64,000 nt of DNA from the NCBI GenBank assembly GCA_963813305.1, contig CAWEYP010000019.1, forward strand, positions 130,727 to 194,726, written 5' to 3'. Source of the stretch: an uncultured Chloroflexia bacterium. Lineage in GTDB: Bacteria; Chloroflexota; Limnocylindria; Limnocylindrales; CSP1-4. Positions within the stretch are counted from its first letter, which is position 1. Each line of letters opens with the position of its first letter. Positions 2,221 through 25,112 of the stretch are shown piece by piece. The notes under the pieces are model-generated. The model saw only the letters and a program-made list of their open reading frames with translations. It did not search any database and was not told the DNA's origin. The position numbers and the translations under genes are program-made.

Positions 2221-4326
2221 ATGACCGCGGCGCCGACCGATCAGGGACGAGACCCTCCGCGCGGCCACGCCCGAGTGTACGGCACGGCGGCGTCCCGGCC
2301 GGACCCGCGCCGGCCTGGCGGCCTCCTCGTGCTCGCGGCCGTCGTCTTCGGCTTCCGCCTCCTGGCCCCGGCCTACCCCGGCGGCGACCTCCTCTACCAC
2401 GGGGCCCTGGCGCTGGACCTCCTGCGCGACGGCTTGCCGATGGAGGGAGCCTACGCGGGGCTGCCGACCTACTACCCGCCGGGGTACCACGTCCTCCTCG
2501 CGGCGCTCATCGGCGCGTTCGGGGCCTCGCCGGTCACGGCGCCGACCATCCTGTTCGTCCTGCTCCTCCCGGTCCTTCCGCTCGGGACCTTCCTGCTGTC
2601 CGACCGGCTGACCGGCCGGCCATGGGTGGCCGTCCTCGCGGTCGCCCTCACCCTGTTCGGCGGCGCCTACGACCTGAACGCCGGCCGGCAGTGGGTCAAC
2701 AGCCTGTTCATGGGCGGCCACGCCGCCTGCACGGTCTACCCGCGTGACCTCGTCTTCGCGATCCTGCCCTTCGCCGCCTACGCCTTCGTGCGGGCCCTCG
2801 AGCCCGCCGTGGCCCGGGGCGGGGACTCGCGTGGGCGGTAGCCGCCGGCATCCTGCTCGGCGTCGCGGCGCTCGTCCAGGTGCAGCTGCTGCTGCCGATC
2901 CCGTTCGCCTTCGCCGCGGCAGCCCTCGTGGTCGCCGTCCGCGATCCGGCCCGCCGCGGACGCGCGCTCGTCGCGCTGGCCGTCACCGGCATCCTGGCCC
3001 TGCTCCTCGCGGCGCCGTGGCTCGTGCGAGACCGCCGACACGATCCGCCAGAACGGCGGCGTGGCCCTCGACTCCTCGGACCAGCTGGAGCCGGCCCAGT
3101 TCGGCTTCTGGAGCTACCCGCGCGAGTTCGGCCTCCTGCTCCCCTTCGGGCTGCTCGGCGCGGGCGCCGCCCTGCTCTTCCTGCGGCGCCCGGATGGACC
3201 GCGGCCACTCGGCCGAGCCCGGACCCTGGCGACCCTCGCTGCCGGAGGCAGGAGTCCTCCTCGCCACGTGGTGGGCCGTCCCCTTCGCGCTGGGGGTGCT
3301 CTACGACCCGACGTGGCCGCTCGAGGACGCCCTGCGCCCCCAGCGCCTGTGGCTGATCGCCTCGCAGCCGCTCGCCATCCTCGCCGCGATCGGGCTCGTC
3401 ACCGCCAGCCGAGCACGTGCTCCTCCGCCGGCGCTCGCGACTGGGTGGTCCCGGCCATCGTGGTCGTCGCAATCGTGGCCTCGGTGCCGGCGACCTACGC
3501 CACGGCCTCGCTGGTGGCCCGCTCGTGGACGCGGGACGTCTACGCGATGCTGGACCGCGAGGCCGACCGGGTGCCGCACTTCGACCAGCTGCTCGGGCGC
3601 ACGGGTCCCCGCGAGACCGTGCTCGCGCCCGAGGACTGGTCGGCACTGGCCTGGTTCGAGACGGGCCTGCCGGTCGTCGCCCTCGTGCCGCCCGGGTACG
3701 CCAAGCTCGCCTTCGACCCGGCCGTCTTCACGGGGGCCTCGCAGGCGGAACGGCGCGCCGCCCTCGTCGCGGCGTGGTCGGGCGACATCGGCGCGCTCGC
3801 AACGGTGGCCGATCGGTTCGACGCGCGGCGGATCGTGATCCCGCGCGACGGCGACCGATGGTCCCTCGTGAGCGTTGCCGCGGCCGCGGTGGCGGGCGTG
3901 GATCCCGGCGCGGCGCCGGGCGGCCAGATCGTCGAGGGCAACGGCTGGGACGCGGTGGCGCTCGAGGCAGGCGAGCGCCTCGTCCTCCCCGCCACGGCGG
4001 CGGGGCCGCTGGAGGTGGCCGTCCGCGTACCCCAGCTCGGTGGCGGGGTGGCGCCCGCCGCGAGCCTTCGCCTCGTCGCCTTGCCGGCCGGCGGCGAGGG
4101 GGCCGGCCGCTCGCTGGCCGTCATCGACATCCCTGCCGGCGCCGACGCCTGGCGTCGCGGGAGCGCCGCGGTGACCCTGGCGGCGGGCGAGCGCCTTGCC
4201 GTCGAGGCGATCACGCCGACCGTCCTCCAGGCCGTCGCGGGCTGGGCCGCGCGCCCTGACCTGCCGGCCGGCTGGCGCATCGCCTCCGAGACCGACGAGG
4301 CCACGGTCCTGGAGCGGCTCCCGTGA
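2221..4326 (+). CDS. GT-C glycosyltransferase, AftA-like N-terminal loop, C-terminal beta-rich domain (several apparent indels)
   Basis: Segments of ORFs 2212..2841, 2880..3356 and 3061..4326 join into about 700 aa. Motif GDLLYH...YAGLPTYYPPGYH, then multiple TMs and a soluble C-terminal domain. Confidence 0.65.
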
Positions 4327-18690: not shown

Positions 18691-19619
18691 GTGAGGGTCT
18701 TCGTCACCGGCGCCATCGGCTTCGTCGGTGGATGGCTCCGGCGTGAGCTGGCGCAGGCGGGCCACGACGTGGTCATGGCCCCCGGACCCGACGCCCTGGA
18801 CATCGCAGACCGCGAGGCGCTCATCCGGTGGTTCTCCGACGGTCCGGACGCCGTCGTCCACCTCGCCGGGATGGCCTTTGCGCCGGACGCTCGCGGCGAC
18901 CCGGCGGAGGCGTTCCGTGTCAACGTCGGGGGGACGGTCGCGGTCTTCGAGGCGCTTCGCGCACTGGGCCTTCGACCGCCGGCCCTCGTGACCGGCTCGT
19001 CGGAGGTCTACGGTGCACCGCGGGCCCGAGGACCTCCCTCTCCGGGAGGAGGCGCCGCTCGCACCGCGGCAGCCGTACGCCGTGTCCAAGGCGGCCCAGG
19101 AGGGCGTGGCGATCGAGGCGGCCGTGCGCTGGGGCTTCCCGGTGGTCGTGACGCGGTCGTTCAACCACAGCGGACCCGGCCAGCGGCCGGTGTTCGTCCT
19201 GCCGGCCCTGGCGCGGCGCGTCGCCGCCGTCAGGCGGGGCGACTCGCCGTTGCTGATCGCCGGCAACGTCGACGTGCGGCGCGACATCGGGGACGTGCGC
19301 GACGTCGTGCGGGCCTATCGGCTCCTGCTCGAGGGCCTGGCCGAAGGCAGGCTCGGCCCGGCGCCGATCGTCGTGAACGTCGCGACCGGGCGTGCCGAGC
19401 CGATCCGCTCGATGATCGCCCAGCTCTGCGAGCTGGCGGGCGTCTCGCCGGAGCTGCGCATCGATCCTGCGCTCGTCCGAGCCGACGATCCGCCGGAGAT
19501 CAGGGGCGACGCGACGCTGCTCAGGGAGCTCACCGGCTGGCGGCCGGAGATGCCGCTCGCGCAGACCCTCGCGGATGCTCCTCGCCGAGGCGGAGGCAGA
19601 GGCGGCCATTGGTCGGTGA
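18691..19619 (+). CDS. rmd: GDP-4-keto-6-deoxy-D-mannose reductase-like (indels near 19030 and 19577)
   Basis: TGAIGFVG, GSSEVYG, PYAVSK, RSFNHSGPGQ and RRDIGDVRDVVRAY. Directly downstream of gmd. Confidence 0.78.
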
Positions 19620-19626
19620 CCTTGAC

Positions 19627-20385
19627 CTACATCATCGCGAGGCCGCCGTCCACGCCGAGGACCTGGCCCGTGATGTAGGCCGCCTCGTCGGAGACCAGGA
19701 AGGCGACCGCGTTGGCGATCTCGTCGGGCGTGGCGAACCGGCCCAGCGGGGTGGCGGCCTTGATCGCGTCCTTGACGTTGTCCGGCAGCCCCTCGGTCAG
19801 CTCCGTCAGGACGAAGCCCGGGGCGACGGCGTTGACCGTGATCCCGCGCGAGGCGACCTCGCGGGCGAGGGCCTTGGTCAGCCCGATCAGCCCGGCCTTG
19901 GAGGCCGAGTAGTTGGCCTGGCCGGCATTGCCCATCTGGCCCGACACGCTGGACATGTTGACGATCCGCCCGGAGCGCTGCTTGAGCATGGGGCGCAGCA
20001 CGGCGCGGGCCATGTAGAAGGAGCCGGTCAGGTTCACGTTGAGGACGTCGGCCCACGCCTGGTCGCTCATCCGCATCGCCAGGTCGTCGCGCGTGATCCC
20101 CGCGTTGTTGACGAGGATGTCGATCCGGCCGAACTCCTTGAGCGTCTCCTCGACGGTCTCGGCGCAGGAGGCCGGGTCGGTCACGTCGCCGCCGACGCAG
20201 ATGGAGCGCCGGCCCATCGCCTCGACGTCGCCCTTGGTGTGGTCGTCGAGCAGGCACGCCGCGCGGTCGATGAAGGCCACGTTGGCACCCTGGCGGGCGA
20301 GCATGAGCGAGACGGCGCGGCCGATGCCGCGCGAGCCGCCGGTGACGATGGCGACCTTGCCGGTGAGATCGAGCATGCGGGTCAT
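19627..20385 (-). CDS. fabG: 3-oxoacyl-ACP reductase
   Basis: TGGSRGIG, LVNNAGITRD, NYSASKAG and VNAVAPGF. FAS context. Confidence 0.95.
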   Translation of the reverse strand: MTRMLDLTGKVAIVTGGSRGIGRAVSLMLARQGANVAFIDRAACLLDDHTKGDVEAMGRRSICVGGDVTDPASCAETVEETLKEFGRIDILVNNAGITRDDLAMRMSDQAWADVLNVNLTGSFYMARAVLRPMLKQRSGRIVNMSSVSGQMGNAGQANYSASKAGLIGLTKALAREVASRGITVNAVAPGFVLTELTEGLPDNVKDAIKAATPLGRFATPDEIANAVAFLVSDEAAYITGQVLGVDGGLAMM

Positions 20386-20732
20386 CCTTTCGCCTGGCTG
20401 TCGGCCGCCAGGAAGCGTCGGACGGAGTCCACCAGGACCGGGAGATCATCGTCGAGCGTGGAGGCGATGATCTCCACCACGACGGCGGGGTAGTTGTGGG
20501 CCAGGAAGTCGCGCAGCGCCTTGAGGCCGCGCCAGTCCACCTCGGGCATCTCGAGGAGCAGGTCCGGGGACAGGAGCTTCGCCTGTTCGCCGGTCTCCTC
20601 GAGGCGCTTCGCGATCGCGTCGACGGCCATGTCGTCGCCCTGCCAGCCGGGCCCGGCCGCAGCGACGTAGGCCTCGATCTTCGCGCAGTGCTCGAGGATC
20701 GCCTCGAGCGCGCGCCTATGCCGCGGGTCCAT
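20382..20732 (-). CDS. HepT/DUF86 HEPN ribonuclease toxin
   Basis: 116 aa with DAIAKRLEETGE, W.GLKALRDFLAHNY (Rx4H plus Tyr). Follows a nucleotidyltransferase gene. Confidence 0.9.
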   Translation of the reverse strand: MDPRHRRALEAILEHCAKIEAYVAAAGPGWQGDDMAVDAIAKRLEETGEQAKLLSPDLLLEMPEVDWRGLKALRDFLAHNYPAVVVEIIASTLDDDLPVLVDSVRRFLAADSQAKG

Positions 20733-21591
20733 GGAGCACGACGCCCTCGCGGGCGATCCGCTCGGCGAGCGCCGGCCGAACCTCGCCGGCGGCCACGACG
20801 TCGACGTCGCGCTCGAACAGCGTCTCCGCGTCGGCGGCGAGCGCGGCGCGCTGGCGCAGGCCGAGCCGATGGCCGGGGATCGGCTCGACGAGGAGGTCGA
20901 GGTCGGAATCCGGCCGGAAGTCGGCCCGGGTGGCCGAGCCGAACGCGACCACGCGCCGGAGGCCGTGGCGCCGGACCAGGGCACGCAGCCGCCGGTCGCT
21001 GGGGACCGCGATGCCGTCGTGGAGGCGCCGCAGGAGCGGCGCGTTCTCGTCGCCGTGCCGGGTCCGGTCGGGGAACGAGCGGTCCACGGATCCCGCCAGG
21101 ACGCGCATCCGCAGGGCGCGGTCGCGCGGCGCCCGGTCGTCGAGCAGGCGGTTGCGCAGGGCGGACTTGTCGAGGAGCTCGACGCGGAACGCCGGGTGGA
21201 GGGAAGCGATGTCGGCGAGGGTGCGCCGCAGGAGCGCCTCGTCCGCCGGCTCGGCGTAGCGCCGGATCACCAGGACGGCGCCCTGCCGGTCGGTCCCGGC
21301 GAACTCCACGGTCCGGTTGGCACGGGCCACGACGGCCAGCGCCTCGATCGGCTCGACCATCGCGAGCGCGAACTGGACGGCCGCCCGTGCGCGTGCATCC
21401 GCCAACGGTGCGAACCGGCGGTCCCTGCGCTCGATGAGCCCGTCGTCCTCGAGCACGCGAAGGGCCCGCTCGGCGCTCGAGAACGGGATCCCGAGCATCG
21501 TCGCCACCTCGCCGGGCCGCAGGCCCTCCGGTCGCTGCGAGAGCGCGAAGAGGGCTCGCAGGCCATGTTCGGACGCGACGAGACGGCTCAT
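20716..21591 (-). CDS. MntA-like minimal nucleotidyltransferase antitoxin with N-terminal wHTH and extra middle domain (291 aa)
   Basis: C-terminal FGSATRADFRPDSDLDLLVE (GSx10DxD) and DVDV. N-terminal LRPGEVATMLGIPFSSAERALRVLEDDGLI (HTH). Confidence 0.88.
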   Translation of the reverse strand: MSRLVASEHGLRALFALSQRPEGLRPGEVATMLGIPFSSAERALRVLEDDGLIERRDRRFAPLADARARAAVQFALAMVEPIEALAVVARANRTVEFAGTDRQGAVLVIRRYAEPADEALLRRTLADIASLHPAFRVELLDKSALRNRLLDDRAPRDRALRMRVLAGSVDRSFPDRTRHGDENAPLLRRLHDGIAVPSDRRLRALVRRHGLRRVVAFGSATRADFRPDSDLDLLVEPIPGHRLGLRQRAALAADAETLFERDVDVVAAGEVRPALAERIAREGVVLHGPAA

Positions 21592-21626
21592 GGACGGATA
21601 ATGACGCTGACAGCGTGATCTGTCAA
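21592..21626 (-). promoter_or_regulatory. Sigma70-type promoter for a leaderless MNT-HEPN mRNA with overlapping palindromic operator
   Basis: TTGACA (21626-21621)-N17-CATTAT (21603-21598)-N6-ATG. Inverted repeats TGACAG-N6-CTGTCA (21608-21625) and ACGCTG-A-CAGCGT (21604-21616). Confidence 0.7.
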
Positions 21627-21733
21627 CGCATCCGCCGTGCCCACGGGATCGAGCGTGCCTTCATGTACGACGCGGATCTCGCCATCGCGGGCCTCGCGCC
21701 GGTTCACGCGGGGATCCTGAGGACGGGCGGGGA

Positions 21734-23224
21734 TCAGTCGCCGGCATAGAGGCGCTCCACGTCGACGAGCACCACGTCGGAACGGCGGGTCGCCTCATCC
21801 CGCAGGTCCGCGGTGAAGCCGCCGGCCGCGAAGACCGCAAGGCGAGTCCGTTCCACGCGCGCCCGACCCGCGAGCAGCTCCCTCGCCCGCTCGAGTCGGT
21901 GCAGGTCCGCCATGCCGCGCGGGTCCGGCCCGCTCTTCGCCTCGCCGATCAGGAGGAGCGTCGGGTTCACGCCGACCTCGTCGTCGGACCGGGCCTCGAG
22001 CGCGACCACATCGATCTCCACCCGGGAGCGACCGGCGCTGTCGTTGACGACGGTGGAACCGACGCGGGCCGCGATTCCGCCCAGCGTCTCCGCGGAGGCG
22101 TACCGCGAGGTCCAGGCTCGCGCGATTTCCTCGAAGGCTGGTCCCGCGACCCCGGACTCGAAGCGCGCCGTGGCGTCCGACCACGCCGCCAGCGTCTGGC
22201 GCGACTCGAACCGATGGAGCGTCCGGGCGGATGACGGCATGCTGGAAGCGGAGCATGGCGTCCGTGATCCGCAGCGTGGGCCGGCGCGAGCGGAAGACGT
22301 CGTCTGCCCGCTCGATGAAGCGCGCCCGTTCGAGGCCGTCGATGACGTGGGTGACGGATGTCTCCGGCCGACCGAGCGCTCCGGCCACCGCGCCGGACGT
22401 CGTTCGGCCTGCAGCGATCGCCGCGAGGGCCGACTGGTAGATCGCGCGGTCCGTGAGGCTGGGCTCCTCGGCCAGCAGATAGTCCGTCTCACGGAACATC
22501 GCGTGCGACGGATTGAGGACCCCTCTCGCCAGCCAGGCCGGGAAGGCGGCGACCGAGGTGGGCGGACCCATCTCGAGAAGGTCCCGGTAGCCGGGTGTGC
22601 CGCCGACGACACAGAACAGGAGGAACGCGAGCTTCGAATCTCCCTGGACCCCCCAGAAGGCTGCCGCCTCCCGGTAGTCGAAAGGGTCGACGACAAGGTC
22701 GAGGACTGCACGCCCCCGAAGCGCCCGTTGCCCGGAGAGCAGTCCAGCCATCACCGACATCGCCGAGCCGCACAGGATCAGGCGCAGGGGCAGCTGCCGC
22801 CCCAGCCGCGAGGCGTCATACGCGAGCTGGATCGCGGACGCGATCTCGGGCGACTTCGCGAGCAGGTACGGGTACTCATCGATCACCACGAAGCGCGGAG
22901 ATGGGGTTGCGGCGGCTGCCGGCCCAGGGTCCGCAGGAGGGCGGACCAGTCCGGGAAGGAGAGGGAGCCGCCCGGCAGGCCCCGGTCAGCCGCCATCGCC
23001 GCCCCGAGCCGCTCGAGGGCCGGGGCTCGCTCTTCCTCGAGGGCCTGGTAGTAGAAGCCGCCGACCTGGCGGGCGACCTCGTCGAGGATGAAGCTCTTCC
23101 CCTGGCGGCGACGCCCGGAGACCACCCCGATCCGGAATGACGTGGTCGGCTCGGTGGCGAAGCGGACAAGGTCGTCCCATTCCGTCGCGCGGTCGAAGAG
23201 GGCGGCAGGTCGCTCAGTGGCCAT
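21734..23224 (-). CDS. Archaeal-type AAA ATPase (ATPase_2/DUF234-like) with wHTH and C-terminal PD-(D/E)xK nuclease-like domain (two indels)
   Basis: Walker A GRRRQGKS, Walker B VIDEYPYL, GGTPGY and EIDVV...LIGEAKS. Assembled from ORFs 22883..23224, 21795..22889 and 21734..22711. Confidence 0.85.
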
Positions 23225-23266
23225 GACCGAGATATACGACCAGAGTGCTAAGAAGTCAAGTCGTAT
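23225..23266 (-). promoter_or_regulatory. Promoter/operator of the ATPase gene
   Basis: AT-rich gap with TTGACT-N17-TATATC-N6-ATG (imperfect -10) and an ATACGAC-N19-GTCGTAT inverted repeat (23234-23266). Confidence 0.5.
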
Positions 23267-24501
23267 CTATGCCCGTAGGGACGGCGGCTCGCCCGGCGTT
23301 CCGATTGTCGCCGGGCGACCGGGCTCGCCCGGCACGACGTCGTCGAGGGGCACGTCCACCGGTCCCGGGGCGGCCAGGACGGCGGCGAGCTGGGGCGGGA
23401 TCGGGTCGACCGAGTCCCAGTCGACCGGCAGCCGGACCCGGATCGCATCGGGGTCGATGGAGGCCGCGCGGGCGCCGTTGGCGGGGTCGACCGACCACTC
23501 CATGGCCACGGCGCCCGACGTGAAGCCGGCCCCGAAGGCGACGAAGACGATCCGGTCGCCGACCTTGATCCGGCCGCTGTCGACGGCCTCGGCCAGGGCC
23601 AGCGGGACCGACGCGGCCGAGGTGTTCCCGTAGCGGTCGACGTTGACGAAGATCTTCTCCATCGGGAAGTCGAGGCCCTTGGCGACGGCCTCGATGATCC
23701 GGATGTTCGCCTGGTGCGGGATGACCAGGTCGATGTCGTCGGGGTGGAGGCCGGCCCGCTCGATGGCCGCCAGCGCGGAGGAGGCCAGCGTCTTCGTCGC
23801 GAAGCGGTAGGTCTCCTTGCCCTCCATCCGGATGAAGTGCTCGCCGCGGGCCACCGTCTCCGCCGACGAGGGGCTCTTCGAGCCGCCGGCCGGCAGCCAG
23901 ATCATGTAGGCGCCCTGGGGGTCGGTCGTCAGCTCGATCCCGTGCGGCCCGGTCGGCTCGTCGGAGGCCGAGACGACCACCGCCCCGGCGCCGTCGCCGA
24001 ACAGGATGCACGTGCCCCGGTCGGTGTAGTCGAGGAAGCGGGTCAGGAGCTCGGCGCCGATGACCAGCACGTGGCGGGCCATGCCCGAGGTCACGTAGGC
24101 GTGGGCGGTAGCGTAGGCGTAGACGAACCCGGAACAGGCCGCGGCGACGTCCATGGCCGCCGCCCGCGTGTTCCCGATCGCCTCCTTGACGAGCGCCGCG
24201 GTGGACGGCATCCAGTAGTCCGGCGTGAGCGTCGCGACGAGGATCAGGTCGATCTCGTCCGGCTCGATCCCCGCGACGGCGATCGCCCGCGCCCCGGCCA
24301 CCGCCGCCATCGAGGCGGTGGTCTCGTGGGCGGCCGCCACGTGCCGCTCGCGGATCCCGGTGCGGGTCACGATCCACTCGTCGTTGGTGTCCACCATCCG
24401 CTCGAGATCGGCGTTCGTGAGGACGGCGGCGGGGGCGTAGTTGCCCCAGCCGCTGATGCGGGCCCAGCGCCCCGCGGGGGGCGTGCGGAGGGGACGGTCA
24501 C
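23267..24501 (-). CDS. fabH: Beta-ketoacyl-ACP synthase III (indel near 24480)
   Basis: VLTNADLERMVDTNDEWIVTRTGIRER, AACSGF, ILFGDGAGA, PHQANIRII and YGNTSAAS. Confidence 0.95.
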
Positions 24502-25112
24502 AGTGGCTCCACCTCGATGAGCGGGTGCTTCGCCTTGACCAGGGTGCCGTTCTCCGCCACGACGCGGACGACCCGGCCCGGACTTGTCGGACTTGATCTC
24601 GTTGAAGAGCTTCATGGCCTCGATGAGCCCGATCACCTGGCCGGCGACCACCTCGCGCCCGACGGCGACGAAGGGCGGCGACCCGGGGCTGGGCGAGGCG
24701 TAGAAGATCCCGGTCAGCGGGGCCAGCACCGCCGTTCGCGCGGAGCTCGCCGCCTCGCCCGCCGCGGTCGCGGCCGCAGCCGCCGTCCCGGCGGCCGGGG
24801 CGGCTCCAGCGGGATCGGCGGCGGCCGGCGGGGCCCCCGGGCCCGCGGCCGGCGGGAGCGCGCCCAGCGCGGCGGCCTTGCGGAGGACGATCCCCGTGCC
24901 GCCGGCCTCGACCTCCAGCTCGAGGAGGTCGCTCCGCTCGAGGAGGCCCGCGAGGCGGTCCACGAGGGCGAGCAGCGAGGCGTCGGCCGCGGGGAGGGAC
25001 GCCGCGACGGCGCGGGAGGGGCTGGTCGGCGGCGAGGGCCAGGTCGCGGTGCCTCCGCCGCGGGCGCGCCGGGCGCTTCGATGCCGGGATCGCGGGCGAG
25101 GTCGTCGGTCAT
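24498..25112 (-). CDS. accB: Biotin carboxyl carrier protein (indels near 25030 and 24580)
   Basis: APLTGIFYASPSPGSPPFV...GLIEAMKLFNEI, with the biotinylated Lys and thumb loop present. Confidence 0.92.

Follow-up and report, generated by a model that had tools for sequence, protein, structure and literature searches.

We analysed a 64,000-nt stretch of contig CAWEYP010000019.1 (below, "the window" is this whole stretch; ~72% G+C) from an uncultured soil-dwelling Chloroflexia bacterium of the order Limnocylindrales, in which a 2.9-kb accessory block lies between the fatty acid synthesis genes fabH and fabG. The block most likely consists of two autonomous accessory modules, a HepT/MntA toxin-antitoxin (TA) pair of type VII and a PDC-S27-type ATPase-nuclease gene, stacked at a fabH-fabG hotspot of a Limnocylindrales genus. 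Every gene of interest is on the minus strand, in the order fabH, ATPase gene with winged helix-turn-helix (wHTH) and PD-(D/E)xK domains, 291-aa wHTH-MntA antitoxin gene, 116-aa HepT gene, fabG. A preliminary description of the window had located the block and listed its genes correctly; it had also taken the three inserted genes for one unit with a sensor and an effector, a reading that the distribution of the genes contradicts. What looks like a three-gene defense operon is thus two independently mobile modules.

Site states and cassette borders at the fabH-fabG junction

The elements of the locus are as follows.

19627-20376, minus: fabG, 3-oxoacyl-acyl carrier protein (ACP) reductase (TIGR01830, E 2.1e-97, above cut-off; protein begins MLDLTGK)
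20382-20732, minus: HepT toxin, HEPN RNase, 116 aa; overlaps the antitoxin gene by 17 nt
20716-21591, minus: tripartite antitoxin, 291 aa (wHTH, residues 1-63; alpha/beta middle domain, ~64-178; MNT domain, 196-291)
21598-21626, minus: MntA-HepT promoter (-35 TTGACA, 17 nt, -10 CATTAT; ATG 6 nt past the -10 hexamer)
21604-21616, minus: predicted MntA operator, ACGCTG-T-CAGCGT (21616-21604), between and over the hexamers
21627-23286, minus: ATPase cassette of 1.66 kb, a homology block that travels as one piece (promoter, ATPase gene, VapC 3' relic)
21642-21713, plus: VapC/PIN 3' relic, the last ~24 codons of a convergent gene (nucleotide homology 21627-21733)
21734-23224, minus: ATPase_2-type Walker ATPase + wHTH + PD-(D/E)xK (DUF234-like) gene, PDC-S27-like, ~496 aa if repaired; separated from the MNT gene by a 142-nt spacer
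23231-23266, minus: ATPase promoter/operator (-35 TTGACT, 23259-23254; 17-nt spacer; -10 TATATC, 23236-23231)
23267-24501, minus: fabH, beta-ketoacyl-ACP synthase III (NCBIfam NF006829, E 2.5e-117; TIGR00747)

Among relatives the fabH-fabG junction was found in three states.

Empty, no gene between fabH and fabG: 10 congeners, together with every one of the 16 genomes sampled from another family of the order
fabH-MntA-HepT-fabG without the ATPase gene: seven congeners (G006, G013, G005, G020, G018, G010 and, decayed, G004)
ATPase gene at the site: G000 alone, out of 40 relatives searched

In the 10 empty congeners the fabH stop overlaps the fabG start directly (gcATGAtc), which is the ancestral state; the block is indeed accessory, as had been proposed. 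The gene order of the window recurs in a JGI metagenome contig (L054) and in a locus of a metagenome-assembled genome (MAG; L072), and hence appears to reflect one event inherited within a small clade.

The borders of the ATPase cassette were mapped by blastn and MAFFT comparison with G009, G018, G020, L053 and L054. At its left end the cassette takes in the fabH TAG stop (23269-23267). The convergent relic matches residues 109-132 of the PIN protein of another locus (L049) with 75% identity in tblastn. Elsewhere the cassette lies beside an intact PIN gene (G009), in a MazE-PIN/VapB-PIN island (L053), or inverted and 12.5 kb from the TA pair (G018 and G020); more distant ATPase homologs are found among glycan genes or beside MazE-PIN, PemK and other TA genes. 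A plausible history is that the TA pair was inserted first and that, later and in this lineage only, a 1.66-kb segment carrying the ATPase gene with its own inverted-repeat promoter was cut from a VapC-adjacent site and added.

No transposase or integrase gene was found in the block. Searched for direct or inverted terminal repeats, its flanks show just the palindromes of the promoters and, in the tail of fabH, a tandem repeat of 36 nt. Neither Rfam nor tRNA scans gave a match in or around the block, so a tRNA-type integration site is not indicated. The junctions show microhomology (CG..TGAC), and this suggests an origin by illegitimate recombination. In three JGI metagenome contigs of a further lineage (P0221; L058-L060), the MntA-HepT pair lies reversed in the fabH-fabG gap, together with two further genes, one HTH_17 (excisionase-like) and one of 56 aa, and this extra cargo marks the gap as a multi-cargo hotspot. 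The site thus offers a natural series (empty, TA only, TA decayed, TA with ATPase, TA inverted with other cargo) in which every inserted state splits translationally coupled essential fatty acid genes. It can be used to study how essential operons tolerate insertions and how a housekeeping gene comes to take its ribosome-binding site from the 3' end of a toxin gene.

A type VII toxin-antitoxin pair and a PDC-S27-type ATPase

HepT matches the Pfam family HepT-like (PF01934) with an E value of 2.1e-12 and 47.2 bits, above the cut-off of 23.5, and carries RDFLAHNY, which fits RX4HXY, the defining motif of HEPN toxins partnered with MNT proteins (PMC7641770). Compared by sequence with the PDB, it gave no meaningful match. 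In the antitoxin, Pfam places HTH_IclR/MarR_2 at residues 9-57 and NTP_transf_2/Polbeta at 203-287, and PADLOC assigns the protein to PDC-S09. Its GS-X10-DXD motif (G218 S219 ATRADFRPDS D230 L D232) is nearly invariant across 33 homologs. In a predicted model of the antitoxin (predicted local distance difference test score, pLDDT, 92.8), the best PDB matches of the MNT domain in Foldseek are structures of Shewanella oneidensis MntA (7bxo, 6m6u and 6m6w), with root-mean-square deviations of 2.1-2.6 Å (2.1-2.4 Å over 92-97 residues for 7bxo and 6m6u). The HEPN/MNT pair recognized in the preliminary description is borne out by both motifs, by the HepT profile score and by the fold of the MNT domain. 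The order MNT gene, then HepT, is kept in nearly all of the 26 MNT-family loci that were fetched, and also in G022 and G159.

Like the known type VII HepT/MntA systems, the pair is antitoxin-first with overlapping genes and has both motifs. Unlike them, its antitoxin has 291 rather than fewer than 150 residues, with an additional N-terminal wHTH and an alpha/beta middle domain, and its family is nearly confined to Limnocylindrales-type Chloroflexota. The type VII assignment is also weakened by the NCBIfam MntA equivalog (NF047752), which matches only the C-terminal 83 residues, with 45.5 bits against a cut-off of 60. The middle domain (~64-178) is a conserved alpha/beta fold in the antitoxin family; a Foldseek search with the whole antitoxin model returned no match to it. 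The idea that it is a degenerate second nucleotidyltransferase was rejected (hhalign probability of 0.1% against the MNT-domain profile).

A further difference from known type VII pairs is that the operator is a palindrome within a promoter whose mRNA is probably leaderless. Across the 26 MNT-family loci the -35 hexamer lies exactly 35 nt 5' of the start codon, and this fixed distance points to an MntA-HepT mRNA that is probably leaderless. A palindrome sits at the hexamers in 22 of these loci, and its half-sites covary by lineage (ACGCTG/CAGCGT, CACTCT/AGAGTG, ATGACGC/GCGTCAT), which is good comparative evidence for a predicted operator of a dimeric wHTH protein. The preliminary description had given each gene set its own TTGAC-type promoter and palindrome. 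Both promoters are retained in relatives; the palindrome TGACAG/CTGTCA is specific to the window, and the conserved MntA operator is instead ACGCTG-N-CAGCGT (21616-21604). As a model for the pair, HepT would be held inactive by the MNT domain of the antitoxin, which would AMPylate the motif tyrosine; the N-terminal wHTH of the antitoxin most likely binds the operator over its own promoter and so provides autoregulation. As a variant in the regulation of type VII TA pairs, the extended wHTH-MntA antitoxin with its covarying operator is open to experiment.

Three motifs mark the ATPase: GRRRQGKS (Walker A), VVIDEY (Walker B) and, towards the C terminus, D...EAK. When its frames are joined (see below), PADLOC matches it to PDC-S27 through PDLC04984 (E 2.6e-17, residues 11-407) and PDLC04985 (E 4.4e-10); in the raw genome the PDC-S27 hidden Markov model matches only the middle piece of the gene (E 8.3e-8). 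Intact orthologs of 494-499 aa are plentiful among 1955 matches overall, and one of them, P0001 (494 aa), is 98% identical to the window protein. In the ortholog alignment G37-K43, D114 E115 and E401 never vary, and at least 90% of sequences keep D403, E426 and K428. The predicted P0001 model (pLDDT 91.3) consists of an AAA-like core, a wHTH and, in the last 150 residues, an alpha-beta-beta-beta-alpha-beta domain. In Foldseek, its N-terminal 340 residues match best to PDB entries 2qen and 2fna (E 1e-11 and 2e-10; template modelling (TM) score 0.64-0.66 on the target), with weaker matches to ORC/Cdc6, RuvB and plant NB-ARC (TM 0.4-0.47 on the query for ORC/Cdc6 and NLR NB-ARC). Sequence profiles also link the ATPase to 2qen (E 8.7e-5).

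Family-level scores count against a straightforward assignment: Pfam ATPase_2 (PF01637) gives 24 bits, under its gathering score of 33.2, and AAA_14 is likewise sub-threshold. Pfam DUF234 (PF03008) does not match the window ATPase, and the excised C-terminal domain returns Mrr_cat alone (E 0.17). The related ATPases of G159 and G022 do score for DUF234. Together with the fold and profile links to 2qen and 2fna, this makes the window ATPase a divergent relative of the ATPase_2+DUF234 architecture. The two structures themselves, PAB2304 (2QEN) and SSO1545 (2FNA), have ~350 residues and so do not cover the C-terminal nuclease-like domain (~340-494).

PDC-S27 is a candidate single-gene system, an unvalidated one, in which an ATPase is fused to PD-(D/E)xK (PMC12988326). 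The window protein resembles it in its profile match, in the predicted combination of a Walker ATPase, a wHTH and a C-terminal E..D..ExK domain in one chain, and in being a stand-alone gene with its own promoter in TA/defense islands. It differs as a divergent subfamily (ATPase_2 below gathering score, DUF234 undetected directly), wedged into a fatty acid synthesis operon and with two frame errors in the assembly. Antiviral activity is known neither for the family nor for the window member. The action of the ATPase would presumably be nucleotide-dependent DNA recognition or oligomerization that licenses the nuclease.

STAND and ORC-Cdc6-type NTPase sensors with nuclease effectors exist, for example Avs-type systems, and the ATPase shares with them a P-loop NTPase, a winged helix and a fused nuclease fold. 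It is far smaller (~495 aa), and its nuclease, of the DUF234 type, sits at the C terminus. The P0001 model has no repeat-type sensor domain (TPR, WD40 or LRR) and ends in a compact nuclease-like fold; ligand-triggered oligomerization is unsupported. Of the AAA/STAND-like ATPase-wHTH-PD-(D/E)xK protein that had been described, the domain calls are borne out by the PDC-S27 match and the 2qen/2fna fold, without the repeat-type sensor of a STAND NTPase.

The ATPase promoter is framed by an inverted repeat, ATACGAC (23266-23260) and GTCGTAT (23240-23234); five other contexts, with orthologs of 61-98% identity, retain it. With the ATG 6 nt past the -10 hexamer, this mRNA too is probably leaderless, judging from the promoter layout.

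The Walker A/B and D...EAK motifs had been described as intact. The motifs are present, but not in a single open reading frame: the gene reads in three pieces (23224-22886, ~22920-22220 and 22219-21734), and as assembled its ATG opens just 113 aa. The frame breaks were called by comparison with L054, an independent metagenome contig of 97% identity, and with four further orthologous loci. The first (22907-22925) falls in a G run within a variable linker of 15-nt repeats, whose length is not a multiple of three; one base missing from the run (-1) would account for the break. The second is an extra C at 22219 (+1), so that the two breaks cancel, and each piece is stop-free in its own frame. Similar single-base changes affect essential genes nearby: compared with five relatives, the window alone has an extra base in the GGG run of accB (24579) and in the C6 run of fabH (24481), the latter putting the fabH N terminus out of frame in the assembly. 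CheckM completeness of the assembly is 56% (2.85 Mb, 22 contigs). The relatives come from a single soil survey as long-contig MAGs, labeled "uncultured Chloroflexia bacterium isolate MFD..." or "Candidatus Limnocylindrales", and several carry single-base indels themselves. Because of the accB and fabH insertions, the cancelling stop-free pieces, the low completeness and the long-contig MAG relatives, we read the breaks as probable long-read homopolymer/indel errors of the MAG.

The alternative is that the ATPase gene is a real pseudogene with two true frameshifts, in a decaying block whose TA pair alone is functional. After all, both breaks are present in the assembled sequence, the extra C at 22219 lies outside any homopolymer, and rpoB (3.5 kb) is unbroken in the same assembly, so errors are non-uniform; these last two points count against an explanation by sequencing error. 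In addition, the TA pair has decayed at this site in G004, and the copy of the cassette in the same place in the sister MAG locus L072 is heavily corrupted. Against decay, the pieces share 98% identity with an intact protein of 494 aa from an independent sample once the two indels are set aside, the indels compensate each other with the first in a G run, and the one-base insertions in accB and fabH are of the same kind in an assembly of merely 56% completeness. A pseudogene is unlikely in our judgement, and we retain the reading of the breaks as probable assembly errors. A uniformly error-ridden assembly was considered and rejected, as rpoB is intact and the errors cluster in G/C runs.

Two other observations concern the quality of these sequences. 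The window genes gmd and rmd are apparently split between frames (~18060 and ~19010), a further pointer, alongside the accB and fabH insertions, to homopolymer errors in the assembly. In L072 (3560-5000; CAVQLA010000006.1, MAG MFD00032.bin.1.157), the ATPase cassette, at the same fabH-MntA site, has a sense strand stripped of most G, with 172 G-to-T, 82 G-to-C and 55 G-to-A differences from the window. The effect ends at the cassette borders (G+C 0.51-0.61, compared with 0.75 in the flanks), and may be either a consensus artefact of long-read assembly or real strand-specific hypermutation.

One functional unit or two

If the three genes formed one defense system, the ATPase could sense invading DNA and release or activate HepT, for example by titrating or displacing wHTH-MntA, or HepT could serve as an abortive back-up of the nuclease. 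The genes are adjacent, on the same strand and terminator-free in between, and they are the sole HepT and the sole PDC-S27 gene of the assembly. A class census tells otherwise. PDC-S27-type genes occur in 21 of 201 genomes (37 matches); 13 of the 21 lack any HepT, and only two of the 37 matches are within 2 kb of one, leaving 35 with no HepT nearby. The ATPase is found alone or elsewhere in G009, G018, G020, G007, L053, L062, L063 and L065. Conversely, the TA pair occupies the site without the ATPase in the seven congeners listed above, among them the 95%-complete G005, and ~24 other MNT-family loci have no such ATPase within 5 kb. Each module also has its own conserved promoter and operator.

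A point against two separate modules is that divergent members of both families lie within 1-2 kb of each other in G022 and G159, above chance and in the same genus; the adjacency of the single HepT-like and single PDC-S27-like genes of the window's genome points the same way. In G022 (C154) a 45%-identical wHTH-MNT/HepT pair has an ATPase of 31% identity 1.5 kb downstream, on the strand that it occupies itself, and in G159 (C32) another such pair is convergent with another ATPase_2/DUF234 gene. Counting the G000 lineage, this makes three independent co-localizations in the genus, and an MNT fragment adjoins the ATPase in G018 and G020. However, order and orientation differ from case to case (ATPase upstream on the same strand; downstream on the same strand with a gene between; convergent), and both the G022 and the G159 locus are TA islands, in which MazE and TacA/GNAT pairs and a second fragment of an ATPase also lie. 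The ATPase neighbors PIN, MazE, PemK and TacA/GNAT pairs as well, which argues for an association with TA islands in general, not with HepT. Co-occurrence elsewhere, on which the single-unit proposal turned, is thus absent as a unit; the families do come near each other above chance in the genus, in three arrangements and always in TA islands. We attribute this residual association to island clustering and regard both a genuine partnership and a single defense system as quite improbable; two autonomous modules remain the preferred reading. Both are of known kinds, the details of site and operator are neat and unsurprising, and the current view of defense systems is unchanged.

The gene that lies between HepT and the ATPase_2/DUF234 gene in G022:C154 (L095, 4390-4887) encodes 165 aa with His/Cys-rich motifs and has no Pfam match.

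Transcription and translation of fabG

One further gene is needed to follow the operon.

Just 5' of fabH, minus: accB, whose stop overlaps the fabH GTG at 24501 (GTGA)

The preliminary description had noted that the HepT stop overlaps a fabG start (ATGA). These letters are present (20385-20382), but the conserved fabG start is the second ATG, 20376-20374, found in 14 of 14 relatives examined in a junction alignment. The upstream ATG (20385) is missing in relatives without the TA pair, and the overlap was rejected as evidence of HepT-fabG coupling. In those relatives the fabG start, gcATGAtc, is preceded by AGGAGG. Wherever the TA pair is present at the site, 6 nt separate the HepT stop from the fabG ATG downstream, and a Shine-Dalgarno sequence, AAAGGA (20390-20385 in the window, inside the HepT 3' end), is encoded by the final codons of HepT. 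The TA module may thus have been inserted in such a way that the 3' end of HepT provides the fabG ribosome-binding site.

A consensus scan of 19400-24700 (5.3 kb) returned no terminator-like site, and the MntA promoter as the sole promoter-like site (0.2 expected); the scan used a sigma-70 consensus that may not suit Chloroflexota, a caveat for the transcription model, and it misses the ATPase promoter since that -10 hexamer ends in C. As the scan detects neither promoter nor terminator from the MntA promoter down to fabG, it is plausible that fabG depends on transcription from upstream, and the gene probably relies on transcripts that enter through the insert or start in it. The dependence of fabG on a module promoter, as suggested earlier, is to this extent plausible; the corollary that it locks the module in place does not survive comparison with relatives.

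A related proposal is that the TA pair is kept as promoter and translational coupler of the essential fabG, with a role in fabG expression and locus stabilization instead of in conflict. It would fit with the spacerless ancestral fabG, whose start the fabH stop overlapped, with the constant 6-nt distance and HepT-encoded Shine-Dalgarno sequence of all TA-bearing genomes, with the decayed G004 copy, which retains the last 41 HepT codons beside fabG, and with the result of the promoter and terminator scan. Yet the insert is patchy, with at least three to five gains and losses on a fabF-accB-fabH tree, where the nearest relative, G011, lacks it; in the widespread P0221 lineage the pair is inverted within the fabH-fabG gap, with other cargo; in more distant genomes the pair is found at unrelated loci; and in G004 an insertion of 2-4 nt in the operator alters the promoter spacing while fabG is still present. 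We hold this proposal to be very doubtful and continue to see the TA pair as an autonomous module, with an anti-phage or other conflict role conceivable for either module.

That wHTH-MntA/HepT and PDC-S27-type ATPases are recurrent functional partners, and that their composite captured essential fabG expression in this lineage, is more improbable still; it would wire membrane-lipid synthesis to the state of a conflict system, and de-repression of the TA promoter under infection or stress would also shift fabG dosage.

Some minor features of the junction are added here. In G001, G022, G019 and G004 (L008, L012, L014 and L007), FabG is 63-69% and FabH 84-93% identical to the window proteins, which suggests either that the fabG allele was replaced or that a recombination boundary lies where fabH meets fabG, beside a variable glycan gene cluster. 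The fabH-MntA spacer of TA-only relatives contains a long inverted repeat of ~120 nt (CCATGAAAGGAATCC ... GAATCCTTTCATGG; L047 ~2580-2730 in G018 and L051 ~3040-3190 in G013), which is absent from the window. FabH has a Pro-rich C-terminal tail of ~75 aa (window 23270-23500) that extends past the end of FabH models and is conserved across the genus and partly across the order. Within the gene region for this tail, the 36-nt tandem repeat (23286-23333) is present in two copies in the window, one in L054 and three in G006.

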